Assembly: GCA_002245135.1 (NCBI GenBank)
Contig: NGBS01000612.1
Coordinates: 1 to 64,000 of the forward strand
DNA: 64,000 nt
Source: Proteromonas lacertae
Lineage: Eukaryota
Direction: 5' to 3'
A program made the position numbers and the translations under genes. Below the pieces are notes generated by a model that had not been told where the DNA came from, made no database searches, and saw only the letters and a program-made list of their open reading frames with translations. Positions 9,936 through 63,900 of the stretch are shown here, in pieces (the stretch's first letter is position 1; each line of letters opens with the position of its first letter).

Positions 9936-12900
9936 TTATTTATTGCCAAAATATATGGCTAATAACAACGATAGTATTGTTGTTAACATTAATACTTTAT
10001 TCACTGTTGGATTAGTAAAGAAAGAAGATTCAATATTTCCATTTCTACTTGAGCTGGGACTTGCTTCTGTAGATGAAGAATATATAGATTTTTCTTCTTT
10101 CTTTTCTTTTACACTTTCTCTACTTGGATGTAAATATTCTGTTAAAAGTTTTCCTACTATATCAACATTTGGTTTTTTCAATAAATTCCAATGATTACTA
10201 TTCTTAATTTCTACTATTGGATATTGATTATTCCATTTATAAGGTTTCATATTTTCCAATTCAAAATGATCTGGTATAACATTGAATATTGGAATATTAC
10301 ATGATTCTAATGATGTTAGCTTATGTTTCTGCAATACTGATAATGAATGACTGAAATTTATTACACTTTCATATAATTCTTTTGTATCAATTCCTTTACT
10401 AATAATATTTTGCTTTATTAAATTTTCAATAACACCTTCAAATTTAGATTTTAATGTTTTTCTATTGTATACTTCACTATCTAGTTTCAATTGTTTATTT
10501 GTTGATAATTCTATACTCTTTATTAAAGCACCTAATGCACCATCATCACTATTGAATTTATCTGTCAACATATCAGGAACAACCCAATCTAATAATATCA
10601 ACTTTTCTACTTTAATATTGTATTTGTTTGACAATAATAATGATAATTCATAACCTACACAGCCTCCAAATGACCAGCCACCAACAATTATATTCTTCAC
10701 AGATTTTGGAGTGATTATATTCATTATTTCTTTGGCATATATTTCACATAGTTCTTCTATTGAATCATATTTTACTTCCATATTCTTTAATTCATAGAAT
10801 GGATAATTATTACCTATTGATTTTGATAATTCTTTATATAAGAAATCTCCTCTTCCAGCACCTTGTACGAAGAACATAGCTGTATCTTGGGACTTTGATA
10901 CATCTATTGGGACAATTTCTTTTATACAAGAAACTGGCTTAGTATCTTTCTTTTCTACTTTTGCTACTGTTGGTGTAGTAGTAGTAGTTGTTTTCACTGA
11001 CTTTTTGTTATTTAATTTCACTTTTGTAAGTAAATATTTTACTAATTTTATTAATGTGCTATTCTCTGATAATGCATCTGGTTCTATAATAACATTTAAT
11101 TCATCTTTAATAATATTTCTTAATTCCATAACCATTAAACTATCTAAACCCATTTCAGACAATTCACTATCATTATCAAGACTTTGTGTTGATGGTAATC
11201 CTAACAATTTCTTTATTCTTTCATTCAAATTATTTATTAGCATTTCATTTCTTTGTTCAGATGGTGTTTCTTGTAATAAATCTATTAATTTCTTTTCTGA
11301 ACCATTTCCACCACTTGATTGTTTCTTTGGTTGTACTTTTTCTAATAATGGTAATGTATCTGTTGATATTAAATCTAAATAAGGTTTTAAGTATGATATT
11401 GCTACATTTGACATTACATTTTTCAATGACCAATTTAATAATGTCATTCCTGTATTGGGGGGTATTTTATAACCTTCGTTTATATTAATCTTTGAAGCCA
11501 TACCTATATCTTTCCAAGCACCCCAATTGATTGTTAATGATGGTAAATTATGTCTTTGTCTATATATTGTTAAGTTATCTAAGAACGAATTTGCTGCTGC
11601 ATAATTACATTGATTAATATTTCCTATTACAGAAGTTATAGAAGAAAACATTACAAATAAATCAATCGGAAGATCCTTTGTTGATTCATGTAAGTTCCAT
11701 GCTCCTAATATCTTTGACTGCATTACACTTGTGAATCTTGTCCAATTCAAATTCATTAAATTATCATCATCTAATACACCTGCTAAATGGAATATTCCTT
11801 TAATATCTTTATTCTTATATTTATTAATAAGATTTGACACATCATTCATATTTGATACATCACATTGTTCATAGGTTATTATATTATAATAATTTGATAT
11901 AAATTCTTGTATCTTTTGGTTAGATGGAGATCTTCCAAGTATTACTACATTCTTTGCACCATTATCAATTAAATATTTTGTTACTTCCATACCAATACCA
12001 CCTGATCCACCACTGATAATATAAGCACCATTTTCTTTTATTGTTCTATTATATGGTTTATTATTTCTAATTACAATCTTTCCTTTATGTTTTGCTTGTG
12101 ACATGAATCTAAATGAATCAATTACATTTCTTCTTTCAAATAAATGTAATGGTAATGGATGAATTGAACCATTTATTATATCATTGTTTATTATATTGAA
12201 CATTTCAGCTATTACTTCTGGTTGTGTTTTTGCTACATTCATTAAATCAAATGATTTGTATTTTATATCTGGACGTTTCTCTTTCATTTGTTCTTCTGTA
12301 TAAATACCAACTTTTCCAATTTCAATAAACCTTCCATTTGTACCAGTTACTTCGATTGATTTTTCAATGAAATCTCCTGCTAAACTATTCAATACAATAT
12401 CAACACCTTTACCATTTGTTAATTCTTTAATCTTATCAGCAAATTCTAATGTTCTACTATTTAATGCAACATTAACACCATTTGATTTAGCTAAGTTTCT
12501 CTTTTCATCTGTACTTGCTGTACCATATATATAAGCACCTATTTTATGAGCTAATTGAGTAGCTGCAATACCAACACCACCACCTGCTGCATGTATTAAT
12601 ACTTTATCATTTGGTTGGATATTGGCTATATGACATAAACCATAATAAGCAGTTAAGAATGTAACTGGAATAGAAGCAGCTTCTTCATATGATATATTAT
12701 TTGGCTTCTTTACTATTAATAATTCATTAGATAATGCATAATTACTGAAACTTTGCATGATTAAACCATAAACTGAATCACCAACTTTAATATTCTTCAC
12801 ATTTGGACCTATTGCTGTAACTAAGCCACTTCCTTCTAAACCATAGAAATCATTCTTATCAGGATACATATTTAACGCATCCATTACATCTCTGAAGTTA

Positions 12901-15900
12901 AGACCTGTTGCTACAATTTGTATTTCTACTTCATTATCTTTTGGTTCTGTTCTTGGAATTGATTTCCAGTATAAATTATTGAGAATACCTTTTTGTGTTA
13001 TTGTCAAATATTCATTTTCTACATTATTTTGTAAGTTAACTGGTAATTTTTCTAATCTTGGAATATATCTATTATTATTACGAATTGCTACCATTGTTTC
13101 ATTATTTGAATTAATTATTTCTTCAATCATTATTATTATATCTTTATCATTATGATTTAATGATAAATCAATTACATGACATGGTATTTCTGGATGTTCA
13201 AGCACCAAACACTTTGCTATACCTGTAATTGGACTAACTGAAAGATTTGGAATATCAGTTGGTAAAACATTATAACCATTTTGTGTTATTATATAAATTG
13301 GAATATGAATATTACTTTGAATAAGTGTTTGTATATTTAATACAAATTCTTGTACTGATGTGAATGAATTCATTGGCTGTTTTACATCAAATTCGGTATT
13401 ACTGAATATATATATTAATGATGTTTCATCATTAATAGTATTATTATTAATTGATTCTATTATTTGATTGGATAGAATAATTGTTGATTTTTTATCAAGT
13501 GTTGACAATTGTGACTGTATTTGTTCTACTGTTTCATTATTGTCATTTGCTGATATTATTACATATGATGATGTACTGTTATTATTATCATTTGATGAAC
13601 TGTCTAATTGTTGTTGACTCCATTCAATATCAGCTGCATCTGGTAAATTCGTTGGAACAATTAATGAATGAATTAATGAGTTTGATACTGGTTTGAGGCA
13701 TAAGTTGTGTAATTCAATAATTACTTCACCTCTTTCATTGATAAGTTCACCATTACAATAGTAATTATTCTTTGATTCTTTACTTAAATGAACTACAGCA
13801 TACAATTGCGAGAAATTCATATAATTAAGATTTAATACTAATGATTCTATTGAGGAAGGTAATGCTAATTGTTTGGTATATGGTTCAATTACTAATGACA
13901 TTAATTCAATTATAGAATCAATATAAACTGGATATATAGTGTATTTACCTGCATTATTATCATTGGTTAATCTAATTTCACTAATAACGGTATTACTATC
14001 TTTATTACTTCTTAATATATCATTTAATAATTGGAAGTTTGATCCAAATTTAATTCCTGTTTCTGCCATTTTGGTGTAAAAATCTGTTGATGACATTACA
14101 CATTGTGAATCATTGATTACATTGTTAATATCTACTATTTGCGGTTGATTATCTACATTATCAATTTCTACATTTCCTTTTGATCTGAGATTCCATGAGT
14201 TGTTTGATGAGTATAATGAGATTGTAAATTCATTTCCATCATTTAATAATTCAAATATATGACTTTCATCTTTATCAAATACAACTGGTGTATAATAATT
14301 CAAATTAGTTATTGTTATTGATTTCTGGGGTGTTAATTGTGTATAAACTGTATCAAATACCATACTTACATCAAACACAAATGGCATTACAACTACATCA
14401 TATACTACATGATCTTTTAATAATGGTAAATTCTTTACATTCATAATTGTATTAAATACAGTTGTATTCTGAGGTATTAATGATGTGTTTAATTTTCCAG
14501 TAATTAATGGAGATTCATGTGGAATTAGGTTTGATTCTACTGTTTGTATTAATCCACCTTTACCTGATATATCTCTACCTTGTTTCATTCTTTCTGCCAT
14601 ATATTCTACTTTCTCAAATGCATAAGTTGGTAATAACACTTTCTTTCTATTAAATCCTTGTTCAATACTCTTCCATTTTAAAGTAACACCATTTTCGTAT
14701 AATACACAAATACTGTGTAATAAGTCTTTCCAATTATCTGATCCTCGTTTTATACTACTTACATTGAGTGATTTATTATCTGGAATAATTCTACTTGACA
14801 TTCCTAATAATACTGGATGTGGACCACATTCTAAGAATATATCAAACTTTAACGAATCTAATGTTTCAATTGATTGAGTGAATTGAACTGGATTTCGCAA
14901 ATGTTCGACCCAGTAATCAGCGTTACTCATCTCAGTCTTTACTATTTTACCACTTACATTACTAATTATTTGAATGTATGGTTCATTATATTCAATCTCA
15001 TTTGCTACTTTTCTAAATTCTTCTAAGATTGGATTCATCATTGAACTGTGGAAACCATGACTTACTTCTAATCGACTAAATCGAATATTATCTTTCTTCA
15101 ATTCATTCTCAAGTTTTTCAATCTCACTTATTAAACCACTTACTACATTCAGTTTTGGACCATTATAACATCCTATCTCTATACCATTATATTTATTTAT
15201 ATATTCTAACACTTTTTCACTTTCCATAAATACAGCTAACATTCCTCCTTTTCCATGTTCTAAACTACTCATCAATTTACCTCTGGCTGATATCAATTTC
15301 AATCCATCTTCTAAACTCATTATTCCACTTACTACTCCAGCTACATATTCACCTATACTATGACCTAATACACATGAAGCTTCGATTCCAAAACTTGACC
15401 ACATCTTATATAAACTATATTCCATACTGAATAAACAGGGTTGAGTGTATTTTGTATCATTCACTAATTCTTTATTTTCTTCATTATATAATACTTCTAA
15501 TAGATTTGGAGATAAATACGAGGATAATATTCTATTACATTCATCCATATTTTCTTTGAATATTGGTTGAGATTCATATAATTCTTTACCCATATTGAAA
15601 TATTGAGAACCTTGACCTGTAAACATTACTGCTACTGTTTGATGTGGCTCATTACCTAATTTCTTTGAACTACTTTGAATGGCTTTTAGTTGAGACAATG
15701 CATCTTCTTTTGATTCTACTGTACAACATATTCTATATTTGAAGTGTTGTCTACCAATACAACTTGTGTAACAGATATCTTCTATTCTATCATTTGTATT
15801 TTCAATGTAAGTAATATATCTATCAATCAATGCATGTAAACCAGATTCACTCTTTGAGGATATACACAAATCATTACATTTACGAGGTATTTCATCTTCT

Positions 15901-18900
15901 TTTACTTCTGGAGCTACATAATTTTCAACTACCATATGAACATTACTTCCACCAAAACCAAAGGAACTTACACCAGCTATTAAATGACCACTTTCATCTT
16001 CCCATTTCATCTTTTCTAATGGAATCACAGCAGGTATTGTATCTATATTTATCATTGGATTTAGTTTATGGAAATGACATTGAGGAGGTATTGTTTTATT
16101 CTTCATCATCATTATTACTTTCGTTAAACCACTTATACCAGCACTTCCTTCTAAATGACCTATACTGGCTTTTACTGAACCTAATACTAATGGATGATCT
16201 TTACTTCGACCATTTCCTAATACACTTCCTGCTGCTTGAACTTCGATTGGATCTCCTAAGGATGTACCTGTTCCATGAGCTTCTAAATAACTTACTTCAC
16301 TTGGTTTTACATTTCCCATCTTTAAGGCATCACGAATTACCATTTGTTGAGATGGACCATTTGGAGCTGTCAAACTGTTGCTTCTACCATCTTGATTAGT
16401 TGCACTTCCACGAATTATTGCTTGAATATTATCTCCATCTTTTATAGCATCACTTAATCTCTTTAATACTACTACTGAACTACCTTCACCTCGACAGAAT
16501 CCATCAGCTGCTTCATCGAATGTTGCACATCTTCCATTTGGACTTAACATCTTTGCTTTACTGAAATTAACATAAAGATCTGGAGCTAATAACAAATGAG
16601 CACCTCCAGCAACAGCAGCTGTACATTCTCCATTTCTAATGGCTTGACAAGCTAAATGAACAGCAAGCAAAGCAGATGAGCAAGCAGTATCAACAGTAAA
16701 TGCTGGACCTTTAAAACCATATGTATATGAAATACGACCTGCAGCTACACTATCAGCAACACCAGTTCCTGTATAACCAATAATACCTGTTAAATCATTT
16801 GTTTTACTTCCAAGTAATGAATAATCACCAGCACAAATACCTAAGAATGTTCCAATCTTTGCACCTAACCAACTATCTGGTGGAATACCTGCTGTTTCTA
16901 AAGCTTCCCAAGTTACTTCTAATAACATTCTCTGTTGAGGATCCATATGTTCAGCTTCTTTAGGAGAAATACCAAAGAACTTTGCATCAAATTCTTCTAC
17001 ATTAACATTCTTCAAGAAACCGCCACGTTTAGTAAATGCTTTACCAGGTTCATCTTTATCTGCACTGTATATAAGACTATGATCCCATCTATCAGCTGGA
17101 ACATCACTTGTTAAATCTTTACCTGTACTTAATAAATCCCAGAATTCATCAGGAGTATTACCACCACCAGGCATTCTACAACTCATACCTACAATTGCTA
17201 TTGGCTCATTATGACTTAATGCAACTTCAGCTTCTTCTTCTTTATCACCTTCTTCATTGAGTTGGAAGATATCATTCATTATATACTCTGATAATGCATC
17301 TATTGTTGGATAATCGAATAATAAAGATCCTGATAATTCTTGCCCAATCATTTCTGATATATAATTTCTTAATTCAACTGACATTAATGAATCTAAACCA
17401 AGTTCACTCAATGGACGATGTGTATCAATAAAACTCATATCATCTATACCCATAACACTTACTACAGCTTGTTTCAATGAATCACTGATTATAGCTTGAC
17501 GTTTTTCAACTGGTACTTGTTTCACTTTCTTATATAATGCACTATCATTAGCTACTGATGCTTTATTGGATGATTTCTTTGTTGATTTTTGTAAATGCGC
17601 AAATGATTCATATAATGGCGTTATTTTAATACCTGGTCTATTTAGATATTTAGACCATTCTAATGGACATACGATTATTTGTGATAAACCACTTTCTATT
17701 GATTCGCTAAGCAATTGATTAGCATATGTTGGATCTATTAAATTCAATCCCATAGATTCGAATGGTTCTTTTGCTAGATTTGCTGCCATACCAACTGATG
17801 ACCATGGTCCCCAGTTTATTACATTACTACATAGATTATTTGTATGACGATAGTAAGATAAACTATCTAAAAACGCATTACCACAAGCATAATTACTTTG
17901 ACCCACATTTCCAATCACCGATGTTGCACTACTGAATAATACAAACATGTTCAATTTATTATGATTTAAACTTTCTTTATGTAAATTCCAACTTCCTATT
18001 ATCTTAGGATTCATTACATTCTCAAATTCTTCAAATTTCAAATCTTTTATTAATCCATCATTGATTATTCCAGCACAATGAATTATTCCAAATATTTCAT
18101 GATTAGAACTTAACTCTTTAAATACTTTATGAACATCTTCTTCATTTCCTATATCACATTTACCACGAATTATTTCTACTCCTTTTTCTTCCATTTCTTT
18201 TACACTACTTTCAATACGATTATTACTTCCATGTCTTCCAATTAAACAAATATGTTTTCCACCATTCTTTATTAACCATTTCGCAGTTAATAAACCTAAA
18301 CCACCATATCCACCTGTTATTACATATAATCCTTCTGGTGATATTTTCAATGGATTATTTCCACGTTTTGCTTTCTGTATTCTATCAACATATCTATTAC
18401 TATCATTACCTCTATACACTACTTCTCTTTCATCACTTCCACTTTCAATTTCTTTTCGAATTGTATCTATTGATACATTTTCATCAACATCTATTATTGT
18501 ACAATTTACATTTGGTATTTCTAAAGCAATTACTCTTGCAAAACCCAATAATGATGAATGATTTAAGTTTATAATATTTGTTTCATCTTTAGCATAATTA
18601 GCATTCTTTGTTACGATGTACAATCTAGCTTTAATACTGTATTTAATTAACGTTTGTGATAATAAATGTAATGCTTTGACTTGATTCATTAATACATTAT
18701 ATTCATATTCATTAGTATTATCTAATAATGGCCACATGTATAATATTGTTGTAATATCTTTGCTATTTTCAAATACCTTTTGATAATCTTCAATTTCATT
18801 ATATCTAATTGTATATTCATTATTATTATCAGATGATTGATAATTATCTCCTCTCTTTACTGTTATTATTTCTGATACATTCTTTAATTCATTACCTAAT

Positions 18901-21900
18901 TTTTCATCAGTGAATAACAAACACTTTGTAATTGGTTGTGATTGTTGTTGATTATCTAATTCTTTCTTTATAAATTGATTCATATAGTAATAATCATTAA
19001 GATTCTCCTTCAATGACATTGATAATATTTCTTTACTAGCTTTCTTCAACATAAATCCTTGAGCTTCTGCTATTATTGCTCCATTTCCATCTATTAATTT
19101 CAATTCACCATTCAATGTATCTTTTGACAAATCAGAACCTTCTGCTATCTTTGAATAACAATATAATTGAACAAATGGTGGTATTTTTTCATATAATAAA
19201 AATCTCTTCATTCCAACTGGTAAATATGTAACACTATCTTTTGATACAAACTTTGACATTATTGATACAATAATCTGAATACAACAATCGAAATAAACAG
19301 GATACATCAAATATGGATCTGTTGTTGACTTTGGCTCCATCTTTAATTTACATAATGCTTCATTATCATTCTTATAAATTGTTTCTACTAATTGGAATAA
19401 TGGTCCTAATGAATAACTATTCTTCCACATATAATCATAGAATTGTTTCAATGTTACTACATCAGTTAATCTCTTCATTATATTTTCTGGTGTATCGCAT
19501 ACTCCTGCGACAAAGTTACTTGTATTATTTAACACTTTACCCATTGCATTAATCATCCATGAGTTCTCTTTATTAATATCACCACTCTTATAACTGTATA
19601 ATTTCCAATCCATTCTATTATCATCAACTGGTGATAAGTGTAATTGTATTGGTTTGGATGGTATTTCTTCTGTTAATACTAAAGCTGCTGGTATTTGAAC
19701 ATCTTCTAAAACACGAGGGAAGTTATGATACAAATCATAAGATGCTTCTAATATTGTACTTATATCAAATACAGCTGGAACAATACATAAATCATTAATA
19801 ACATGATCTAATAACACTGGTAATGCTTTTGTACTGAAATTGGAATTAAATATAACATCTTGTGCAAATGGAGATTTGATTCTTTGACCACACAATATAT
19901 TTGTTTGTGATAATGTCATTGCACTTGAACTATTTCCACTACCACTAGCACCAAGTGTAATTTGTCTAGCTACATTACTCTGACCATTTTCTAATGCACC
20001 AATCCAATAATGTCTTCTTTGATATGGATATGTTGGTAATATAACTTTATGACATTCAAAACCTTCATCAATTCCATTGAAGTTTACAGAATAACCGATT
20101 GTGTATAACTGTGATAATGAGTTGAATAAATTCTTCCAATTACTACCTGTTTTATCTATTGACTTTATCCATGTCTTATTCTCAATAATTCTACCTGCCA
20201 TTCCTAATAATACTGGATGTGGACCACATTCTAAATAATACTGATATTTCTTTCCTACAAATTCCATCGATTGTGTGAATTGAACTGGATTTCGCAAGTG
20301 TTCTACCCAGTAATCAGCATTTCCCATTGTATCTCTATCTGCTAATGAACCTCTTAAGTTTGATAATATTGGTACTTGTGGAGGATTGTATTTTATTTCA
20401 TTGGCTACTTTTCGAAATTCTTCTAAGATTGGATTCATCATTGAACTGTGGAAACCATGACTTACTTCTAATCGACTAAATCGAATATTATCTTTCTTCA
20501 ATTCATTCTCAAGTTTTTCAATCTCACTTATTAAACCACTTACTACATTCAGTTTGGGACCATTATAACATCCTATCTCTATACCATTATATTTATTTAT
20601 ATATTCTAACACTTTTTCACTTTCTAAAAATACAGCTAACATTCCTCCTTTTCCATGTTCTAAACTACTCATCAATTTACCTCGAGCACTTATCAACTTC
20701 AATCCATCTTCTAAACTCATTATTCCACTTACTACTCCAGCTACATATTCACCTATACTATGACCTAATACACATGATGCTTCGATTCCAAAACTTGACC
20801 ACATCTTGTATAAACTATATTCCATACTGAATAAACAGGGTTGAGTGTATTTTGTATCATTCACCAATTCTTTATTTTCTTCATTATATAATACTTCTAA
20901 TAGATTTGGAGATAAATACGAGGATAATATTCTATTACATTCATCCATATTTTCTTTGAATATTGGTTGAGATTCATATAATTCTTTACCCATATTGAAA
21001 TATTGAGATCCTTGACCTGTAAACATTACTACCAATTCTGGTTGTTTTGTAGATTTCACTTCATTGTATATAATATTTGGAGATTTCTTACCTTGTAAGA
21101 AATCATTCAACTGATCTTGTAATTGTTTAACATTTTGTGTAGTTATTGCTAATCTGTGATTGTAACTAGTTCTACCTGTATTTGCTGTATGACAAACATC
21201 TTTAATATTGACATTACTATTATCTTGTAAGTATTGTATATATTTATGAACCAATTCAATTAGAGCTTCATTTGATTTTGCACTTAATGTGAATATATTA
21301 TCATTTCTCTTACTTAGTGATTGTGAATTCTGTATAACTGGTGCTTCTTCAACTATAACATGAACATTTGTACCACTAAAACCAAATGAACTTACAGCAC
21401 CAATATGTGAATGACCTTGTGAAGTTCTCCAATCAATTGTTTCTTTTGGAACTATTAAATGATTTGCTGATAATGAAATATGTGGATTTTCTTTGACTAA
21501 ATTCAAATGAGCTGGAATCTTTTGATGTGACAAAGACAATATCAATTTGATTAAACCACTTATGCCAGCTGCACCTTCCAAATGTCCAATATTTGTCTTT
21601 ACTGAACCTAAATATAATCCATCTTGTGGATTTCTTCCTTCTTTCATTACACTACATAATGCTTCTACTTCTATTGGATCTCCTAAAGATGTGCCTGTTC
21701 CATGAGCTTCAATATAACTTATATCACTAGCTTTTACATTTGCATCTCTTAAAGCACTTCGAATTACTTTCTGTTGGGATGGACCATTTGGAGCTGTTAA
21801 ACCACTACTTCGACCATCTTGATTTACCGCACTTCCACGAATTATTCCCAATATATTATCATTATCTTTCATTGCATCACTTAATCTCTTTAATACAATT

Positions 21901-24900
21901 ATACCACATCCTTCACCTCTTACATAACCATTAGCAGAAGCATCAAATGTTTTACACTTACCATCAGGAGATAACATATGTGCTTTTGAGAAATTGATTG
22001 ATAAATCTGGAGTTAATAAAAGATTAACACCACCAGCTATTGCCATATTTGTTTCTTTTAATCTCAAGCTCTGACAAGCTAAATGTGTTGCTACTAATGA
22101 AGATGAACATGCTGTATCAATTGAAACTGCTGGACCTTGTAATCCAAATACATAAGATATTCTACCACTTGCTACACTGTTTGCATTTCCTGTACCAAAG
22201 TATTGATCACATAATGTTGGATCTCCAGTCTTAGTTTGTAATAATTGATAATCATTTGAACATATACCTATATAAACACCTGTCTTTGATCCATTAAGAG
22301 ATTCATTTGCATAACCTGCTCTTTCTAATGCTTCCCATGTGACTTCTAATAATAATCTTTGTTGAGGATCCATTCTTTCTGCTTCTTTACCAGCAATATT
22401 GAAGAAGTTAGCATCGAATAAAGCTGGATCTTCTTTTAAGAAACCACCGAATTTACAACACATCTTACCTGGTGCATCTGCATTTGAATCATAATATTCA
22501 TCAATATCCCATCTATTACTTGGCACTTTGGATATACAATCAGTTCCTTTTTCTAATAATTTCCAGAATTCTTCAGGAGTTGAACCTCCATTAGGGAATC
22601 TGCATGATAAACCAACTATTGCTATTGATTCTTTTTCTATTGGAATATCTGATAGTCTTGGTATTGGAATACTACTACTTCTAACATCTGTAAATTGTTC
22701 ACTTTCCATTGTAATTGGGGTTGTTGTTGTTGTAGTTGTACTTGTTGCAGCTTTAGAATCTTGTAATTCTAATACATCATTTAATAAATAATCAGTTACT
22801 GCATTTATATTTGGATAATCAAATAATAATGTGGCAGGTAAACTCTTTCCTACTGATTGTGATATACTATTTCTCAATTCAACTGCCATCAATGAATCTA
22901 AACCCATATCTGTTAATGGACTTGTTGGATCAACTTCATAATTTGAATCTAATGCTAGAATACGTTTTACTTCACTACTAACATAATCTAATATCATATT
23001 TCTTCTTGCTGATTTTGGAGCAGCTTCTAATGATGATATAAATTTATTATCTGAACCTGTTGAAGATGTTGCACCTGAACTTGCTACTTTAACTTTTGTA
23101 ATTGTAAATTCTTTCTGCAAGTTAGACATAATTGAAGAATCCATTGGACCAAATAGTTTCAATGCTGCTTCTGGTATTAATGTAACTTGAGTATAATTTT
23201 GTGTAATTGCTAATTCCATTAAGTTAATACCAACATCACTCTTTATCTGTGTTTCTGGAGGCATCATATTTCCACTACCAGCTTCATTCAATTTAAATGC
23301 CATACCAACATCAGCCCAAGGTCCCCAATTGATTGTTAAGCACGGTAAACCTAATGATTTTCTGTAATATGTCATTGCATCTAAATAACCATTTGCTGCA
23401 GCATAATTCAATTGACCTGAGTTTCCTATTACTGCTGTTGCTGATGAGAATAAAACGAAATAATCTAAATTAATATCTTTTGTTATTTCATGTAAATTAT
23501 AAGTTCCAATAATCTTTGGTAATTGCACAAATTCAAAATCACTCCATGTTAACTTGGATATTAAACTATCTTTAACTATACCTGCACAATGGAAAACACC
23601 TTTCAATGGTAATTTCAATTCAGAAACCACTTTTTTCAACGAATCTAAATTAGATATATCACATTTTGGAGCAATTACTTCAACATTCTTACTGTTTAAT
23701 TCATCAACAAATTCTTTATTCTTATCTGTTACACCTGTTCTTGATAAAATAACTAAACACTTTGCACCTTTTCCAACTAACCATTTTGCTACTAATTGAC
23801 CTATTCCACCAAATCCTCCTGTTATTAAATAACAACCATCTTCTTTAATACTTATCTCATGTGGTGGATGTGGATGAGTTATAACAATCTTACCAATATG
23901 TTTAGCATTCTGCATATATCTAAATGCATCTACTACTTTGGTGTGCTTAAATACTGTTATTGGTAATGGATGTATTGTATTATTACTTAACATTTCTAAT
24001 AATTCATTCATTAATTTGTTAATTAATGGTGGATTCTCACTCCATATTTCTACTAAATCGAAGAAATCATAATATAATGTTGGTTTATAATTCTTAACAT
24101 CTTCTTTACTCCATCTACCTGCTTTACCTATTTCTATAAATCTACCATCAGAAGAAGTACAATCTAATGTTTTTGGTATAAAATCACCATTTAATGAGTT
24201 TAATACAACATCTACACCTTTACCATTTGTTATTTTCATTATTTCTTGACTGAATTCAGTGTTTCTTGAGTTAAATACACGATTTACACCTAATGATAAT
24301 AAGTAATTACGTTTCATATCACTTCCTGCAGTACCAAATATTGTACAACCAATTGACTTAGCGATTTGTACAGCTGCTAAACCTACACCACCAGCTGCAG
24401 CATGAATTAATATTGTATCTTCTTTCTTTAATTTTGCTAAGAATACTAAGCCATAATATGCTGTTAAGAATGTTGCTGGAATAGTTGTAGCTTGTTCATA
24501 AGACATTTCCTTTGGCAATTTCACTATATATTTCGCTTTAGCTATAGCATATGTTCTGAAACAACCTGGAGCTACACCAAATACAGAATCACCAATACTA
24601 AATCCTTGTACATTCTTACCAATTGATGTAATAACACCAGCACATTCACCTCCAAATGGCATATCACCACCACCTGGATATTGACCCATTGCATTTAATA
24701 CATCTCTGAAATTCAAACCAGTTGTAAATACTCTTATTTCTACTTCATCATCTTCTGGATATACTCTTGTTAATGATCCATATTTGAGATTATCTAATTG
24801 ACCTCTACCTGTTGTTGTTAAGATGATTGGATTATCTTTTACTTCATCTGTTGAGATAATTTCTGCTCTTCCCAATTTACCAATATATCGTTTAAATGAT

Positions 24901-51900: not shown

Positions 51901-54900
51901 AGTCGTTATCAACCATTAGATATGGGAATTATTAACAAAATAAAAAGCAATTATAAAACTGAAATTTTAAAGAAATGTGTAGAAAATATTGAAAACTTTG
52001 AATTAATAAAGAATATTCAAATTGAAAACAGTAAAGGAAAAGGTGGTATAGCTTTATGTAAGCAACCGAATATAGCAGATGCTATGTATTATTCTACCAA
52101 AGTATTTTTTGGTCTTAAAAAAACAACAGTTATTAAATGTTGGTTGAAATCTTCATTACCATCTGAAGAACAAATAAAAGAATTAAATTCCATATTACAA
52201 TCAGAAAATTGTAATATGAATGTTGATGATGATGAAGAAAGTCAATGCGAATTAAGCCAAATAATTGGTAAAGTAAATGATATTATTATAGAAGATGGAA
52301 ATACAAATTCATTTATAAATGCAACTTCTCTTTTTAGTACAAAATCTATAAGTGAGTTGTACCCATTTTATAGCTTTGAAAATGAAGATGGTTTTAAAGT
52401 AGAAGTTGTTGATAATGTAATTCAAGAAAATAGTAAAGAAGATTCAAATAATGCAACCTGCAAAACCAAAAGAAGAATTGATAATATGTCTAATGAAATA
52501 AATAAAACTAAAAAAAGCAAGATTAACAACATCTTCGAATAATCTTTAAAACACTTATAAAATCTCTTTGTATATCAATTATTTTTAGTGTATTTAGTAT
52601 ATTTATTCAAATGTATAAAATAGTAAATTATAATCATTTTGTTTCAACATTTTATTTGATTATAATTCATTTTTCAAATAAACAAGAAGCAAAAAATATA
52701 ACTCGAATTTTTGTCCGTTTCTTGAAAATGAAGGGGTTTGAGTTATACAGGTTTGACTGTAATACCAATAATGCAATATTGGGGAATACTTTTTCAATAT
52801 TTTCTATACCAATTACTTTTGGTTGAATTACTTTGTTATATGATTCATAAGACATGTTATTAATTAATTTATCATCTAACACACCAGCAGCATGAATAAC
52901 ACAATACACATTTAGATTCATTGATTTTAATTCCTGTTCAAGTCTATACAAATCATCAATATTAGTAACATCACTTTGTTTGCATAATATTTGACAATTA
53001 CCTGATTTTGATAATTCATTTACTTTATCTTGTAAATTAGAAGGTAATCCATGTCTTCCTAATATTACTATATTCTTTACATTCATTCCTATTAATGTTT
53101 CTACTAACGACATTCCTATACCTCCATATCCACCTGTTATAACGTATGTATCTTGTTGAGATGTTGATATTGGAGTTGTTGATGGTTTTAATAATGATTT
53201 ATTGACGCTTTCTATGAATAATTTATTATCTCTTATTGCTGATATTGTATTTGGATTCTTTGTAGTAATTATTGTATTGAATAAACTTTCATTATTTCTA
53301 TTTATATCAATAATTCTACATGTAGTTTGATGATTTTCTAAGGCAAATACTTTCATTATTCCAATATAATATGATTGAGTTAAATCAATTTCATTGTTAT
53401 TCTCATTTACATAATATCCATTTCTTGTTACTAATGTCAATGTAAACTGTTGATTGGATGATGACAACAATCTCAACATTGTAATGAACTTATATGAATC
53501 TTCAATTGATGATTTTGATGGTGAATAATACACTACATTTTCAATTGTTCCATATTCACTTAAGAATTGTTTGAAGTCATTATCTTCTAATTTCATACCA
53601 TATTTATTATCATCATGATAATAATGATCAGATTCATTTAAGAAACTACACTCTAATGAATTAATTCCTTCATATGAGTTTATTACTAATGTCTTCTTTG
53701 AATTTAATTCTTCCAATTCTTCTATTTCTTTTTCACTCCATTGAATTTGGTAAATATTTGAACTACTTACTTTGTGTGAACGTAATAATGCATTTCTATC
53801 AACTTCTTGTAATTTAAAGTTCTTTGAATAAGCGATAATTTCATTATTACCATTTAATAAATATAAATCAGCTAATACACTCTTTCTATCATTTGTTATT
53901 ACTTTTGAATAACAGTATAATTGTGTAGAATCTTCTACTTTTCGTAATAATGTAAATTCATCCAATGAAACTGGTAGTAATGTCTTAAACTCATCTTTTG
54001 AAACAGATAAACCAACAGAAGCAATAACAGTCTGAATACAACAATCAAACAATATAGGATACATATAATAGGCATTAGGTATTTCTTGAATGTTAATTTC
54101 ACCAATTGATTCATTATTATCACTATTAACATGGATATTTGATAATAATTGGAAATGAGGTCCAAATTCATAACCTCTTTCATTCAATTGCGAATAGAAA
54201 TCATTTTGTTGATATTCTCTACTAGAACATCTTGATATTATGGATTGTATATTATCAATATTCTCAGTACTATTATTATTATTATCTTCAATAACACCAT
54301 AACAATGAGTGATCCAACTATCTTTAGAATGAATATCACCTTCTACATAACTTGCTAACTCAAACATTACATTACCATTTGAATTGCTTGTTGCTAACTG
54401 AATTGTTGCTGAATTATCTAAGAATAAAGCTGATGTTAAATTGACATTGGATAATCTGATACTTTGTGACTTATTCATAAATAAACCAGCTTCAGCTACT
54501 AATTCTAAATAATAAACAGCTGGTAATATCAAACAATTGTTCATCATATGATCTTTCAATTCTTCAAACTTTGATGTATTTATTGTTGAAACAAATAAAG
54601 ATTCAGTCAATAATGGTGAACTGAAACAATAACCTGATAAATTAGATGAATATGAACAGATTGAATCGTCAGTTAATAAGTTACGATGAGTTGTATCAAT
54701 CCAACATCTTATTCTATCAAATGGATAATTCTCTAATGGAACTCTGTGATATAATAAATTATTAGAAGTATTAAATGGTAAATCATCTATTCCACTCGTG
54801 TATAATAATCCTACACTTCGTGTTATAGAACTTTGATCAGATGAACCTCTTACTAGTGATGGTACATAGATAATTGATGGATCATTTAAGATATATTTAC

Positions 54901-57900
54901 TCATTCCTATTAATACTGCATTTGGACCACATTCTAAATAAATCTTATTAGAATATAATTTATCACTACATTCTATTGATTGAGTAAATTGAACTGGATT
55001 TCGCAAGTGTTCGACCCAGTAATCAGCATTACTCATCTCATTTTCTTTTATTAAACTTCCACTTACATTACTGATTATATCTTTTACTGCTTTTCCATAT
55101 TTAATCTCATTTGCCACTTTTCGAAATTCTTCTAAGATTGGATTCATCATTGAACTGTGGAAACCATGACTTACTTCTAATCGCTTATATCCAACCCATC
55201 ACTCTTTAGTTCATTCTCAAGTTTTTCAATCTCACTTATTAAACCACTTACTACATTCAGTTTTGGACCATTATAACATCCTATCTCTATACCATTATAT
55301 TTATTTATATATTCTAACACTTTTTCACTTTCCTAAAATACACATAACATTCCTCCTTTTCCATGTTCTAAACTACTCATCAATTTACCTCGAACACTTA
55401 TCAACTTCAATCCATCTTCTAAACTCATTATTCCACTTACTACTCCAGCTACATATTCACCTATACTATGACCTAATACACATGAAGCTTCGATTCCAAA
55501 ACTTGACCACATCTTATATAAACTATATTCCATACTGAATAAACAGGGTTGAGTGTATTTTGTATCATTCAACAATTCTTTATTTTCTTCATTATATAAT
55601 ACTTCTAATAGATTTGGAGATAAATATGAGGATAATATTTCATTACATTCATCTAATGTATCAGCAAATACTGAATTTGTATGATATAATTCCTTCGCCA
55701 TATTGAAATATTGAGATCCTTGACCTGTAAACATAACTACAATTTGAGGTTTTTTATTTGTTTCACAAACACCATATGTTACTCTCTTATCTTCTTTATT
55801 ATTTAAATAATTATCCAAAGCTTCTTTAACATCTTCTTTTGTTTGACATGAAACACTTAAACGATAATTGAAATGATTTCTACCATTTGATAATGTATAA
55901 CAAATGTCAGCAAGTGAATATGGAATGGATGTAATATTCTGAGAATATAACTTTGCTGATTCTACTAAACTGTATTGAGATTTAGCTGATAATTCAAATT
56001 CAAAATATTTATTCGTTTCATCAATTGTAACATCAGAATGTTTTGGTGCTTCTTCTACAATAACATGAGCATTTGTTCCACCAAAACCAAATGAACTAAT
56101 ACCACAAATCTTCTTTGAATAACTATCAGGCCAATTCATACCATTTGATGGAATAACAATACCTGATTGATCTATATGTAATAAACTATTAAGATGATTG
56201 AAATGTAAATGTGATGGTATGTAATTATTATTCATTGATAATAAGATCTTTATTAAACCAGCTACACCAGCAGCAGCTTCTAAATGTCCAATATTCGTTT
56301 TGACTGAACCAACTACAAGAGGATGGTTATTGTTATGACCTTTATATACATTCTGTAATGCATTTACTTCTATTGGATCTCCTAATTTTGTACCAGTACC
56401 ATGAGCTTCTATATAACTAACTTCAGAAGGAGAAACACCAGCATTGGATAATGCATTTTGGATCACTCTTTGTTGAGATGGACCATTTGGAGCAGTTAAA
56501 CCACTACTTCGACCATCTTGATTTACCGCACTTCCACGAATTATTCCCAATATATTATCATTATCTTTCATTGCATCACTTAATCTCTTTAATACAATTA
56601 TACCACATCCTTCACCTCTTACATAACCATTAGCAGAAGCATCAAATGTTTTACATTTTCCATCAGGAGCTAACATTCCAGCCTTTGAGAAATTTATCAT
56701 AGTTTCAGGTGAACTAATACAATTCACACCACCAGCTACAGCCATATTACATTCATTCAATCTCAAGCTTTGACAAGCTAAATGAATACTTACTAATGAT
56801 GATGAACAAGCTGTATCCACAGCAATAGAAGGACCTTGGAATCCATATAAATATGAAATTCTACCAACAGCTGTAGAGAAATAACTTCCAGTTGCAAAAT
56901 AACCATCATTCTTAGCAGAATCATCATACTTCATTTGTAATAATTGATAATCAGTTGTAGTTAAACCACAAAATACACCAACAGGTGAAGCTGTTAATTT
57001 AGCTGGTGCATAACCTGCATTTTCTAACGCTTCCCATACAATTTCTAATAGTAATCTTTGTTGAGGATCCATTGAAGCAGCTTCTCTTGGAGATATACCA
57101 AAGAATTGACAATCAAATTTATCAATTCCTGTATCTATTAAACCAGCAGACATTGTTTTCATTGTATTTGGTTTTTCACCAGTCGAATCATAATAATTTT
57201 CTATATCCCATCTTTCTTTTGGTATTACAGTGATACAATCTTTTCCTTGTTTCAATATATTCCAATATTCTTCTACAGAATTAGCGCCACCTGGGAATCT
57301 ACATCCCATACCTACAATTGCTATTGGTTCATTACTAGAAACACTTGATTTTGATAATGACAATGAAGCTGAAGGAGTAGATTGAGTTTCATTGGATAAA
57401 TCAATATTCTTTGATATAAATTCTACCATATCATCAACTGTTGGATAATCAAATGTAAATGTTGTTGATAGGTTCAATCCAGTTTTTGCTGATAATGTAT
57501 TTCTTAATTCAGTTGCCATTAATGAATCTAATCCAATATCTCTTAATGGACGATTATGAATAATTTCTTGTGTTGAATTCAATCCAAGAATACTTTGTAA
57601 TGATGTTAATACAATATCTTTAACTGAAGTTGGTTTTATTGACTTTGACATAGATGAACTACCACCAAATGAACTTCTTAATATATCACTAAATATTGAA
57701 TTCTTTAATAATTCTGGATAGTTCTTTCTTAATATATTAGAATCAAACTTGTTAATTATTACATTTGATAAGTATGTTTTTAATGCAGATTCTAAATTGT
57801 TTAATGCATCATTAGTTGGTATAAGAGTGACACCATATGATTTCCATTTACTACTACTAGTTTTAGTTGCCATTCCTACTTCTTTCCAAGGTCCCCAGTT

Positions 57901-60900
57901 TATTGCTAAACATGGAATACCATTCTCATTACAAATACTGTCTAAATAGGAATTAGCTGATGCATAATTAGCTTGACCACCATTACATGTTATTGATGTA
58001 ATTGATGAAAAACATACGAAGAAATCTAATGATTTTACATTAACTATTGACAATAAACTTCTAGCACCTTGAATTTTGGGTACATAAACTGATTTTATAG
58101 CTTCCCAATCCATATTTGCAAGAATAGAATCTTTAACAATACCAGCAGCATGGAAAACACCATTAATAGTTAAATTCTTTTCGTTATTATGTTGTTTAAT
58201 TGAATTAACACAGTTCTTATCTGCAATATCACCTTTTATACATTCAAATTTATATCCATTACTTTCTAAATCACTAACAAATGATTTCATTGATTCTGGT
58301 AAGCCATTTCTACCTAATAATATGAATGTAATATTCTTAGCTAATGAACAACACCATTTAATTAATTCTTGAGCAATTTGGCCATATCCACCTGTTAATA
58401 AATAACAGCCATTATCTTTAACACTTTGTCTTTCCTTTCTTTGATTCTTATTACTTTCTCTTGTTATAACAATCTTACCGATGTGTTTACCTGAAGCCAT
58501 AACTCTGAATGCATCTTTAGCATGATTGAAACAATATGGAACAACGGGTAATGGAGCATAAGTATCATTTCCAACATTATTAGCTATTGAATTTAATAAA
58601 GAATTACCTAAATTATGATCATTTTCAAACACATCTAATAAATCAAAGTGATAATATTTCACACCTGGTTTATTCTTATTTACATCTTCTTCTGTCCAAA
58701 TTCCAGTTTTACCAATTTCAACAAATGTACCAGTATTCTTAATAATAGAGAATGATTTGGGTATGAAATCTTTTGCTAATGAGTTTAATACAAAATCAAC
58801 ACCTTCTGGAGCAATTTTTGGTATTTCATCTGCAAATGATAATGTTCTTGAATCATATATATGATTTACACCTATTGATTGTAAGAATGAATGTTTTCCA
58901 ACACTTGCAGTACCAAATATCTCACATCCAAGTGATTTAGCAATTTGTACAGCACAGAATCCAACACCACCTGCAGCAGCATGAATTAATACTTTATCAC
59001 CTGCTTTACAATGACCTAAATTCACTAATGAATAATAAGCAGTAGCATAAACAACAGGTAAAGCAGCACCATCAATACATTTAACACTTTCAGGTATAAC
59101 AGCTACTGAATAAACTGGAACACAAACATATCTTGAGAATGAATATTTACCAATGCCAAATACTTTATCACCAATATGAACATTTTGTACATTTGAACCT
59201 GTATTTACTACATAACCGCTGAATTCTAAACCAAGTGGACCAGCATCACCAGGATATGTTCCTAATACGTTTAATACATCTCTAAAGTTCAAACCAGAAG
59301 CGAATACTTCTACTTCAATTTCATCAGGTTGTGGCAGTTTTCTATCAACAACTTCTGTAATAATATTCTCAAATGTTCCTTTATTAATTACATTCAATCG
59401 ATCATTAACTGTTGATTCTTCTTGTAATGGTAAAGATTTAATCACTGGTACAAATCTTGAACCATAATGAAGTGCGACTTCTGAATCATCATTAGAATTA
59501 CATAATTCATTGAATAACCACTGTGATTCTAATTGATAACTCATTGGAGAACTACCACCATTAATATCAATTAATGTACATTTCATTGAAGAATATTCGG
59601 TTTTAATACATCTACCAAAACCCCATAATGTTGATTCATTGGAATTAATTGATAATTCATATCCAATTTGTTGTGTTTTTCTTGTAACAATTGCTAATCT
59701 TCCTTTGAAATTATTGGATATTGTTTGTACAATGGTTAATAATGATCCTGTACCATTGATATTTTGTATTTCTAAATCATTATCATTTTCATTAATATCT
59801 AAAGGCCAGGCATAAACAATCAAAGAGTTTGGCTTGACTACTTCTCTTGTTATATCTTCTAATTGTTTTTTATCATTTCCAACAACTTTAGAATTTGGTA
59901 TTTTATCATCATGAGATATGATTATTACTTCAGTTGAATTCTTTTGATATGATTTTACTAATTCTTCAGTAACACCAGCATGATCAGCATATATAACTAC
60001 ATTAGGATATATTGTCATTGTATTTGATTCACTTTGTTTTTCTACCCATTGTAATGTATTTAACAATGAAGAAGTAATTGATGATGATGATGATGTAATT
60101 CCTAATAACTTATGAAATATTTCAGTATTTATAACAGAGTACTTTATTTCATTAATATATAATATCAATTCATTCTTTTCATTATATAAAGTAATACTTG
60201 ATGTTAAACCTTCATTTGATGATAATTTCTTACAATAACACCACAATCCATTCAATTCAACATTTGAATTATACACAACATTATTAACAGATACTGGAAC
60301 ATAGCATTGATTGGATTTTAACAATAGAATAGGTAATTGAATACAAGCATCAAGTACTGATGGATTCAATGATAAATAATTATCACTATTACCATTACTC
60401 TTATTATCAATATCAGCAACAATTGTATTTTCACCACATAATGCTTTCATCACTTTCTGATATTCATTTCCATATTGATAACCATTTTCTACAAAGAATT
60501 GATATATTTCTGATTGTGAATATACAATTTGTTGACATTGATTTACTGCTTCTTCTTTAGATGATATTGTTGAAATATTAATATCATTATTAGTATAAAC
60601 ACCTTTACAATTCTTTGACCATACTTGATTGTTGATATTATTAGATATTTCAAAGTTCTTATCTTGAGATAATTCTAATTGTAAAGACCAAGGTTTTACA
60701 TTTTCAAGTGATGGAATTGGTAAAGCAGATTGTATTTCCATTGATTCTAATTTTGACACATCTGATTTTGATGTTAATTTATCACATTCTAAAGCTAATG
60801 AAATGAAATAAGCAGCTGGAACAATTGTAACATCATCAATCTGATGATCAGTTATGTAATTGTAAATACTATTACTTTCAATTGAATATATTGTTCCTTG

Positions 60901-63900
60901 GAATAGTGATGACGATATTTGTTTAATTCCTTGTGTTTGATAAGTTGTATGACTATATCTATTTGATGTAAACCAACATGATTGTGACTGATATGGATAA
61001 CTTGGAATATGAACTAATGCTAAATGTGAAGCAGTTGTAAACAGATTTCCAATTGATTGAAATATTATGTAAATATAATGTAGAAATAGATTGTGAAATT
61101 GAGTATAAATTGGATTTGTTATTGGATAATGATGGTACATAGATAATTGATGGATCATTTAAGATATATTTACTCATTCCTATTAATACTGCATTTGGAC
61201 CACATTCTAAATAAATCTTATTAGAATATAATTTATCACTACATTCTATTGATTGAGTAAATTGAACTGGATTTCGCAAGTGTTCGACCCAGTAATCAGC
61301 GTTACTCATCTCATTTTCTTTTATTAAACTTCCACTTACATTACTGATTATATCTTTTACTGCTTTTCCATATTTAATCTCATTTGCCACTTTTCGAAAT
61401 TCTTCTAAGATTGGATTCATCATTGAACTGTGGAAACCATGACTTACTTCTAATCGCTTATATCCAACCCATCACTCTTTAGTTCATTCTCAAGTTTTTC
61501 AATCTCACTTATTAAACCACTTACTACATTCAGTTTTGGACCATTATAACATCCTATCTCTATACCATTATATTTATTTATATATTCTAACACTTTTTCA
61601 CTTTCCATAAATACACATAACATTCCTCCTTTTCCATGTTCTAAACTACTCATCAATTTACCTCGAACACTTATCAACTTCAATCCATCTTCTAAACTCA
61701 TTATTCCACTTACTACTCCAGCTACATATTCACCTATACTATGACCTAATACACATGAAGCTTCGATTCCAAAACTTGACCACATCTTATATAAACTATA
61801 TTCCATACTGAATAAACAGGGTTGAGTGTATTTTGTATCATTCACCAATTCTTTATTTTCTTCATTATATAATACTTCTAATAGATTTGGAGATAAATAT
61901 GAGGATAATATTCTATTACATTCATCCATATTTTCTTTGAATATCGGTTGAGATTCATATAATTCTTTACCCATATTGAAATATTGAGATCCTTGACCTG
62001 TAAACATTACTACAATTTCATATCTTTTTAAATCATCACTACTTTGAACATCACACTTTTTATTGCTAATATAAGCTTTCAAATTATTAACTAATTCATT
62101 GACATCATTGTTACATGGAACAGCAATCTTATTTTGATAATTTGATCTTAATCTATTGCTTGTTTGAGCAATTTCAGAAACAGAAACTTCTGGGACATTC
62201 TCAATAAATTGATTCACCATATCATTTAAGGAATTTTGTGAATGAGCTGATAATGTAAATACCATAGGAGTATTTTTACTTTCATCTTCAATTGACTTTG
62301 GAATATTTGTCTTTGGAGGTTCTTCTAAAATAAGATGTGCATTTGTTCCACTAAAACCAAATGAACTAATAGCTGCTCTTTTAACTTCATTATACTTTGG
62401 CCAAGGTACTAATTTAGAATTAACTACAGCTGGAATTGAATCAAGATGAATCAATGGATTGCATTGATGATAATTCAAATGAGGAGGAATTTCATTATAT
62501 TTCATTGCTAATAATACTTTCAATACACCTGCAATACCAGCAGCAGCTTCTAAATGTCCAATATTCGTTTTGACTGAACCAATATAGAGTGGTTGATCCT
62601 TTCTATTTTCATTATAAATATGACTTAAAGCTTCTACTTCTATTGGATCTCCTAATTTTGTACCAGTACCATGAGCTTCTACATATGCTATTGAAGATGA
62701 ATCAATATTTGCATTTTGAAGAGCAGATCTAATAACACTCTCCTGCATTGGACCATTTGGAGCAGTTAAACCACTACTTCGACCATCTTGATTTACCGCA
62801 CTTCCACGAATTATTCCCAATATATTATCATTATCTTTCATTGCATCACTTAATCTCTTTAATACAATTATACCACATCCTTCACCTCTTACATAACCAT
62901 TAGCAGAAGCATCAAATGTTTTACATTTTCCATCAGGAGATAACATTCCTGCTTGTGAAAAGTTGATAGTCATATCTGGAGCTAACATAAGATTAACACC
63001 ACCAGCTAAAGCAGCTTCACATTCACCAGATAACAAGCTTTGACAAGCCATATGAATACTTACTAATGATGATGAACAAGCAGTATCAACAGAAATAGAT
63101 GGACCAGTTAAGCCATAAGCATATGATAATCTACCACTTGCAACACAAGCAGAATTACCAGTTCCAAAATGAGAGGTAATATTATTCAAACCAGCTTCAC
63201 GAGTTTGTAAGATTTGATAATCATGAGTGAAAATACCAATAAATACACCATATTTACTACCATTTAATGAGAATGGTTGATAACCTGCATTTTCTAATGC
63301 TTCATAAGAAACTTCTAATAATAATCTATGTTGAGGATCCATAATATTTGCTTCTTTCTTTGATATACCAAATAATGAATAATCAAATTCATCTACTTTT
63401 TCATTCAGAAAACCACCCCATTTTGTATTCATTTTACCATTACCACCATTTTCATCGTAATATTCATTAGAATCCCATCTTGATAATGGTACTTCCGTTA
63501 TACAGTCTTCACCATTCTTTAATACATTCCAGAAATCTTCTAATGATTTTACATTTCCTGGGAAATGACAACCAGCTCCAATTATAGCAATTGGTTCATT
63601 TCTATTAATAGATTTACTATGAGAAATTTGTTTTGGGATTGATTCTGGTTTGACTATATATTGTTCTAATGTATTCTTCCATAAATAATTACTGACAGCT
63701 TCAATTGTTCCATAATCAAATAAGAATGATGATGATAATTCTAATCCAAATTTCTCAGAGAATATCGCAGTTAATTCTTGACTTAATAAACTATCAACTC
63801 CTAAATCTCTAAATCCAACACTTTGTATATTACCATTCTTCTTTTCTTTACCAACAATTGATAAGAATAATTCTTCCACTTTATCACAAATATATGGAAT

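Follow-up and report, generated by a model that had tools for sequence, protein, structure and literature searches.

The question raised by the stretch of Proteromonas lacertae DNA studied here (contig NGBS01000612.1, positions 1 to 64,000, referred to below as the window) is which product would be assembled by the polyketide synthase (PKS) gene that it carries. This gene encodes a single cis-acyltransferase (AT) type I PKS, lies on the minus strand (63999->9936) and is spread over several reading frames. An original prediction from the same DNA had proposed a colinear synthase for a lipid resembling polyunsaturated fatty acids (PUFAs). The present analysis points, with moderate probability, to a colinear and oxygen-independent synthase for eicosapentaenoic acid (EPA; 20:5, all-cis 5,8,11,14,17), or, should further modules lie upstream, for a longer chain sharing its carboxyl end.

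Module architecture and the EPA register

Pfam and motif mapping gave a layout of an acyl carrier protein (ACP), nine modules and a thioesterase (TE). The modules, each beginning with a ketosynthase (KS), follow the series R-D-K-R-D-K-R-D-R, in which R denotes dehydratase (DH)-enoylreductase (ER)-ketoreductase (KR), D denotes DH-KR and K denotes an A-type KR only. The module order put forward in the original prediction was thereby borne out for all nine modules. The gene is open at the window edge, with an ACP upstream of module 1 and the gene running beyond position 64000. The architecture of the PKS, its motifs and its breaks are real, and its parts are as follows.

63682..63879, minus strand: ACP upstream of module 1 (Pfam PP-binding), either a loading ACP or the end of an unseen module
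57415..63597, minus strand: module 1, KS-AT-DH-ER-KR(B)-ACP, full reduction; 1-base indels at ~61470 and ~61010
49698..57330, minus strand: module 2, KS-AT-DH(D class)-KR(B)-ACP; stop in the AT near 55335 and 1-base indel at ~55197, KR split by a transposon
45280..49619, minus strand: module 3, KS-AT-KR(A)-ACP, no DH (motif mapping)
38920..45206, minus strand: module 4, KS-AT-DH(LIDSCFQ class)-ER-KR0-ACP; AT with two +1 indels (~43221 and 42905)
33840..38832, minus strand: module 5, KS-AT0-DH(D class)-KR(B)-ACP; AT degenerate, as in the homologues L002 and P0004
29260..33771, minus strand: module 6, KS-AT(GFSIG, His lost)-KR(A)-ACP, no DH (motif mapping)
22780..29103, minus strand: module 7, KS-AT-DH(LIDSCFQ class)-ER-KR(B)-ACP; the KS has a 1-base indel within a run of A at ~28775
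17280..22631, minus strand: module 8, KS-AT-DH(D class)-KR(B)-ACP (motif mapping)
11025..17207, minus strand: module 9, KS-AT-DH-ER-KR(B)-ACP, full reduction (motif mapping)
10130..10900, minus strand: TE (GWSFG; Pfam), with Ser, Asp and His motifs common to the homologues L001 and P0003
9936..10004, minus strand: C-terminal hydrophobic tail after the TE, mean hydropathy 1.88 over 19 aa, missing in L001 and P0003

All nine KS domains contain the Cys-His-His residues by motif mapping and all ACPs a DS(L/I/V) motif, so that the repeated modules, active-type KS and ACP domains and release domain of a modular cis-AT type I PKS are all present by motif. The malonyl-type motifs GHSIG and H[AG]FH were found in seven of the nine ATs, in line with the malonyl specificity claimed earlier for the intact copies; AT5 is degenerate and AT6 has no catalytic His. 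The B-type Asp is present in KR1, 2, 5, 7, 8 and 9. In KR3 and KR6 the LDD Asp is missing and the A-type Trp is present, which makes them A-type by motif, as had been claimed for the third module of each period, and KR4 has neither its NADPH motif nor its catalytic motifs. The DH motifs described in the original prediction were recovered, YPxxFDCCIQ in DH2, DH5 and DH8 and HxLHHxxVVPG with FPGLIDSCFQ in DH4 and DH7. A Pfam scan of eight PKS pieces gave no methyltransferase at E<=0.01, in agreement with the absence claimed before, and no FabA-like DH or flavin ER at the same threshold; the DHs matched only PS-DH/PKS_DH_N and the ERs ADH_N/ADH_zinc_N.

Numbering from the carboxyl end, module n handles carbon 21-2n. 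If the starter is acetyl, each D module leaves a beta,gamma alkene and each K module a cis alpha,beta alkene, the series gives a C20 chain with bonds at 17, 14, 11, 8 and 5; these positions are independent of the starter when counted from the carboxyl end, and the chain length depends on it. Among 14 natural PUFAs written as module orders, EPA alone corresponds to RDKRDKRDR. Of the 1260 distinct orders of four R, three D and two K modules, one gives EPA and three give any fully methylene-interrupted pattern. This 1 in 1260 overstates the surprise, as a periodic order is cheap by duplication, and a fairer chance under tandem duplication is roughly estimated at 1 in 18 (1/2 for the cyclic order, 1/3 for the phase and 1/3 for the switch of the last module).

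Homologues were sought with DH7 against proteins of 3412-10859 aa, which returned 52 matches, four of them at 41-46% identity, and by a metagenome scan in which three of 147 stretches were confirmed. Two of the stretches, L002 and L001, belong to one 30.6-kb metagenome contig with a GC content of 52-53%, compared with ~29% here. Together they read ER-KR(intact)-ACP, D, K, R, D, R, TE, corresponding to the end of module 4 through module 9 and the TE (M4 end to M9-TE), in one frame with one stop. Among the proteins, P0003 reads R-D-R-TE (M7-M8-M9-TE), P0004 R-D-K (M4-M5-M6, with KR4 intact), P0002 R-D-KS and P0001 R-D-K-R. P0060, with the source label Picozoa sp. SAG31, holds a D module and the next KS and is almost the same as P0002 in trees. 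The ER is missing and the B-type Asp is present in all eight homologous D-class modules with the KR in view. By comparison of these sequences, the repeating period and the M7-M8-M9-TE end are kept in divergent homologues. The order of the Picozoa-related P0001 would end a line for docosahexaenoic acid (DHA), and this protein may represent a natural variant that ends in DHA. In this notation the full series for DHA would be RDKRDKRDKR and that for arachidonic acid (ARA) RRKRDKRDR. Among the best 150 of 11230 representative matches, every single-domain score above 220 bits came from this PKS family, and a pattern scan of GTDB genomes for the D-class DH gave 22 matches, none of which was confirmed.

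It should also be noted that P0001, P0002 and the Picozoa protein P0060 begin, by eye, with a SAM-like and coiled-coil region, and that the ATs are dead in two adjacent modules. P0001 has an M7-like and an M8-like module, then an A-type KR module after a KS9-like KS, and finally a reducing module that has no AT and whose DH differs.

Predicted origin of the cis bonds

In the proposed synthesis, an acetyl starter would be loaded on the ACP upstream of module 1 and the beta-carbon would be reduced to CH2 by modules 1, 4, 7 and 9. Modules 2, 5 and 8 would form a D-hydroxy thioester, which their special DH would dehydrate while moving the alkene to cis-beta,gamma in a FabA-like manner; this would place bonds 17, 11 and 5, the product being gated by KS6 and KS9. 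The L-hydroxyl left by modules 3 and 6 would be removed by DH4 and DH7, whose second dehydration, a vinylogous one, would yield a 2E,4Z-dienoyl; the ER would reduce the 2E bond of this intermediate, leaving cis bonds at 14 and 8. Neighbouring modules would cover for the dead AT5, AT6 and KR4, and the TE would release or transfer the acid at a membrane. The hydrophobic tail after the TE is a possible tail anchor, which suggests that the megasynthase may be membrane-anchored in this host.

DH4 and DH7 follow the DH-less KR modules 3 and 6 and have an intact His-Asp dyad, as in double-dehydrating DHs. With five homologues they form one clade across taxa (FastTree support 0.999). The best match of DH7 among 34 solved sequences was CurJ (E 2.4e-45), followed by CurH (1.3e-19). 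Formation of alpha,beta as well as gamma,delta bonds is reported for CurJ and CurH, as is the conversion of a (3R,5S)-diol to a 2E,4Z-dienoyl by a gladiolin DH (bioRxiv 10.64898/2026.09.17.752105). A bacterial sample of 76 loci was taken from the best 80 of 143 confirmed matches, and within it 35 of 47 DHs with the motif GL[IM]DSCFQ were preceded by a KR module lacking a DH, compared with 2 of 11 DHs of other kinds (nominal p 0.0009), the loci being non-independent, with many close relatives, and the control biased by the centring of the loci on the test DH. A complete upstream module had to be in view for this count, and 22 and 7 rows were dropped, as were DHs with their own KS out of view; the KR A/B typing in these loci is approximate, which leaves the DH-less count unaffected. 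From this comparative analysis, there is good support for a predicted dehydration of the upstream hydroxyl by DH4 and DH7.

A three-module cluster of the form KR-A / DH-ER-KR / KR-A was also observed in Ketobacter, HdN1 and relatives (L018:470-20898, L020, L022, L028, L029, L036, L038, L043, L044). The cluster of L018 starts with a fatty acyl-AMP ligase (FAAL) and ACP, leads into a condensation domain of a nonribosomal peptide synthetase (NRPS) and would give a lipopeptide with an inserted cis alkene. These clusters were rejected as a bacterial EPA line on account of having three KS only, the FAAL start and the NRPS that comes next.

The DHs of the D modules are a separate group. DH2, DH5 and DH8 fell with nine homologues and the long-branched DH1 into a clade of their own (FastTree support 0.996). 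Around the active site this class has Asn at His+3 in 13 of 14 sequences, Val at His+11 in 14 of 14 and Cys at Asp+1 in 12 of 13; the shared residues are rare among 98 bacterial DHs and are clustered at the His strand and the Asp helix. The KSs downstream of a D module likewise group together, nine of ten being placed in one clade irrespective of whether they open a K or an R module (100/100, stem 0.47). Within the window, parts of KR5 and KR8 and of KS6 and KS9 are 95-100% identical as DNA, which would fit equal intermediates at both junctions and would equally fit plain gene conversion. The KR tree is dominated by composition and gave little beyond the grouping of KR6 with its homologues.

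The dead KR4 had been regarded in the original prediction as a poor fit with a PUFA model. This objection is weakened, since the two homologues with KR4 in view (L002 and P0004) have an intact copy and ER4 and DH4 are still conserved here. Identity to the P0004 orthologue is 52% for ER4 and 42% for DH4, comparable to that of ER7 (49-54%) and DH7 (41-48%), and KR4 is only 21-24% identical to its homologues. As ER4 and DH4 are conserved beside a diverged KR4, module 4 is probably still reducing fully with a borrowed KR. Cross-module action of ER and AT domains is documented (PMC9899208), and the degeneracy of AT5 in the homologues as well suggests that cross-module AT loading is ancestral. In AT6 (31300-32190), long DNA tracts are near-identical to other ATs and the three active-site motifs differ (GYGSQ, GFSIG, LAYYS). 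The pattern resembles gene conversion sparing the active-site motifs, and AT6 may be kept inactive or with another role. A single intact AT is found at the C-terminus of P0004 (residues 5621-5931), beyond the last ACP, and is a possible donor for AT-less modules.

Weighing of the predicted products

If no shift takes place, the D modules would form trans bonds and DH4 and DH7 cis bonds, and the product would be a conjugated-diene acid of 20 carbons (4E,8Z,10E,14Z,16E), acting as a signalling or defence lipid. Such a route draws only on precedented chemistry, namely trans alkenes from a B-type KR with a DH and double dehydration of the CurJ/CurH kind, and the D-class DHs do indeed have no known isomerase motif. 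It leaves unexplained, however, why the order, the phase and the final K-to-R switch should land on EPA, and why the D class has invariant active-site residues of its own and is followed by a long-stem clade of KSs. No natural product matching this acid is known to us, no search having been aimed at one; the acid is considered unlikely as the product, though to be taken seriously. The simpler reading of the original prediction, a repeating -CH2CH2-CH=CH-CH(OH)CH2- unit, turned out to be the weakest rival, the real one being the conjugated Z,E-diene acid. Read canonically, the modules would give 9,15-dihydroxy-4E,10E,16E-eicosatrienoic acid, which would also carry a 13-oxo group unless KR4 is complemented and which the TE might lactonise. 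No cross-module action is needed for this polyol, the K modules have no DH and KR4 is dead in the window copy. It is nevertheless very improbable, given the good support for dehydration of the upstream hydroxyl: DH4 and DH7 are a dedicated clade after K modules that resembles double-dehydrating DHs, the bacterial GL[IM]DSCFQ motif tracks DH-less upstream modules, and without a KR both ER4 and DH4 would be left without substrate, yet both are conserved.

Several observations weigh against the EPA proposal. DH2, DH5 and DH8 retain the His+9 Pro and DxxxQ, so that the signature of enoyl isomerases and shifting DHs is not seen in them; enoyl isomerases are described as replacing the His+9 Pro by Leu or Val and as changing DxxxQ, or its Asp to Asn (PMC11672594, PMC7327777), although isomerising cis-AT DHs are said not to need that residue change (PMC11672594). 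A Leu-to-Pro variant of GphF (L1744P) is called isomerase-inactive in the title of PDB 6mbh, and a B-type KR with a DH is described as normally leading to a trans alkene (PMC6264292). The predicted structure of DH8 (pLDDT 75.7) is that of an ordinary PKS double-hotdog DH with CurJ as best match. The profile of the D-class DHs also ranks CurJ first, so that CurJ likeness is partly a matter of ancestry, and 10 of the 47 bacterial GL[IM]DSCFQ DHs follow a module with its own DH. KS3 is the one KS after a D module outside the after-D clade. In the window copy KR4, AT5 and AT6 appear dead and KR2 is interrupted by a transposon, and no relative spanning M1-M3 or the starter was found in three homologue searches, the metagenome scan and a search of 1.84 billion representatives.

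The proposal of a PUFA-like synthase thus stands in part. Its register is exactly that of EPA, its period is kept in homologues and dehydration of the upstream hydroxyl is well supported; that DH2, DH5 and DH8 make a beta,gamma cis shift is purely what we infer and is the weak step of the EPA model. The exact EPA register, the minus strand, the transposon in KR2, the frame breaks and the defects of AT5 and AT6 were not given in the original prediction.

State of the gene copy and its surroundings

Two further features of the window bear on the state and origin of the gene.

50366..52759, plus strand: pogo/Tigger-like DNA transposon within KR2, with terminal inverted repeats identical over 15 bases, a TA target duplication and a DDE_1 open reading frame at 51244-52542
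3874..9732, plus strand: class C G-protein-coupled receptor (GPCR)-like gene, neighbour outside the PKS, feature score 0.96 to 7tm_3/ANF_receptor clusters that are 93-100% Eukaryota

The transposon, of ~2.4 kb, separates the LDD motif of KR2 from its Tyr motif. Its frame encodes a DDE_1 transposase (PF03184, E 1.9e-27), and with the terminal inverted repeats and the TA target duplication all features of a pogo/Tigger element are present. The open DDE frame of 432 aa and the matching ends suggest that the element is probably of recent origin or still active in its host genome. The PKS frame is also broken by six single-base indels (~61470, 61010, 55197, 43221, 42905, 28775) and one in-frame stop (near 55335). 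Five of these seven small lesions lie within AT repeats, which are 92-98% mutually identical and account for 12% of the gene (p ~5e-4), and several sit in homopolymer runs. Their clustering in the AT repeats points to unpolished long-read errors in place of real breaks, and the six indels and the stop are probably assembly errors. The transposon is not an assembly error, and the window copy is probably disabled by it, unless the element is spliced out or is present on one allele.

Whether the window copy is a recent pseudogene making nothing is a separate question, compatible with any product, and the answer is inclined slightly towards no. In favour of a pseudogene, KR2 is split by an element whose inverted repeats are intact, whose DDE frame is open and which shows a TA duplication; seven more lesions are present, and homologues have intact versions of KR4 and AT6, both dead in the window copy. 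The clustering of the lesions in near-identical AT repeats and homopolymers is, on the other hand, expected of unpolished long reads, and frames of 4720 aa and 6205 aa are open. KR4 is far diverged without a stop, which suggests that its loss is old and tolerated.

The GPCR-like gene is convergent with the PKS and lies 204 bases from its stop codon; it gave no Pfam match at E<=0.01. A bacterial contaminant was rejected as the source of the PKS because of this adjoining eukaryotic gene, the similar GC3 (0.14 vs 0.17) and the pogo element. The GC content of the window is 23-34%. Upstream of 3874 several short frames were observed with putative GT-AG introns of ~33 bases, near 99-131 and 1989-2022.

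Relation to known systems and significance

Reviews recognise two routes to EPA and DHA, an oxygen-dependent desaturase/elongase pathway and the iterative PUFA synthase with its poorly understood programming (PMC9702510). The iterative synthases (PfaA-E of marine bacteria and those of thraustochytrids and Emiliania) are like this PKS in predicted product and cycle logic, and are also malonyl-based and oxygen-free; their cycle is described as full reduction, a 2,3-shift to cis and a 2,2-cis step, and the enzymes as iterative (PMC9702510, PMC9667614). DHs of Emiliania have been used to rescue an E. coli fabA(Ts) strain (PMC9667614). The Pfa systems reuse one domain set with tandem ACPs, a KS-CLF pair and FabA-like DHs, whereas this PKS has nine separate modules, PKS-type double-hotdog DHs, MDR-type ERs and a TE, and one class of its cis bonds would arise from an A-type KR. 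Membership of the Pfa family was rejected, there being one ACP per module, a catalytic Cys in every KS, no FabA-like DH and ERs that are not of the PfaD flavin type.

The closest solved DH relatives belong to the curacin PKS (CurG-CurH, CurI-CurJ), where the DH after a DH-less module dehydrates twice, and the layout of CurG [KR] followed by CurH [DH-ER-KR] reportedly yields a cis alkene. The curacin PKS and related cis-AT lines of cyanobacteria and myxobacteria differ in having no repeating period and no skipped polyene, and include methylation and NRPS steps. Movement of a PKS alkene to beta,gamma has its precedent in GphF DH1, the ambruticin and ansamitocin DHs and trans-AT enoyl isomerases (PMC11672594); the D-class DHs are without the residue changes of these shifting DHs and are no nearer to GphF (E 1e-19) than to other DHs, with CurJ at 3e-50. 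Another protist assembly line whose module order has been read as a lipid is Gephyrocapsa PKS7, proposed to make alkenones (PMC13508280); it is trans-AT with trans alkenes, in contrast to the cis-AT PKS described here with its predicted methylene-interrupted cis alkenes.

No description of a modular PUFA synthase was found in open-access searches directed at a modular PUFA route or at protist PKSs, most subscription papers lying outside this scope, and novelty is provisional. Type I PKSs of Picozoa were counted in a single-cell survey, without products in the text available (10.64898/2026.04.17.719054), and the Blastocystis PKS is described in the accessible part of its source only as a six-domain gene (PMC3129679).

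It is somewhat favoured that unrelated protists, Picozoa included, share a third PUFA route, a modular PKS derived from bacteria with one module per EPA bond and a new class of cis-shifting DH. If so, each module would display a single step of a PUFA programme, and it would become possible to test directly when each cis bond is formed. Chain length and unsaturation would be settable by module swaps, swaps of the last modules would reprogram the product, and a cis-shifting PKS dehydratase would be gained for engineering. Uncultured heterotrophic protists such as Picozoa would then be possible de novo producers of omega-3 fatty acids.

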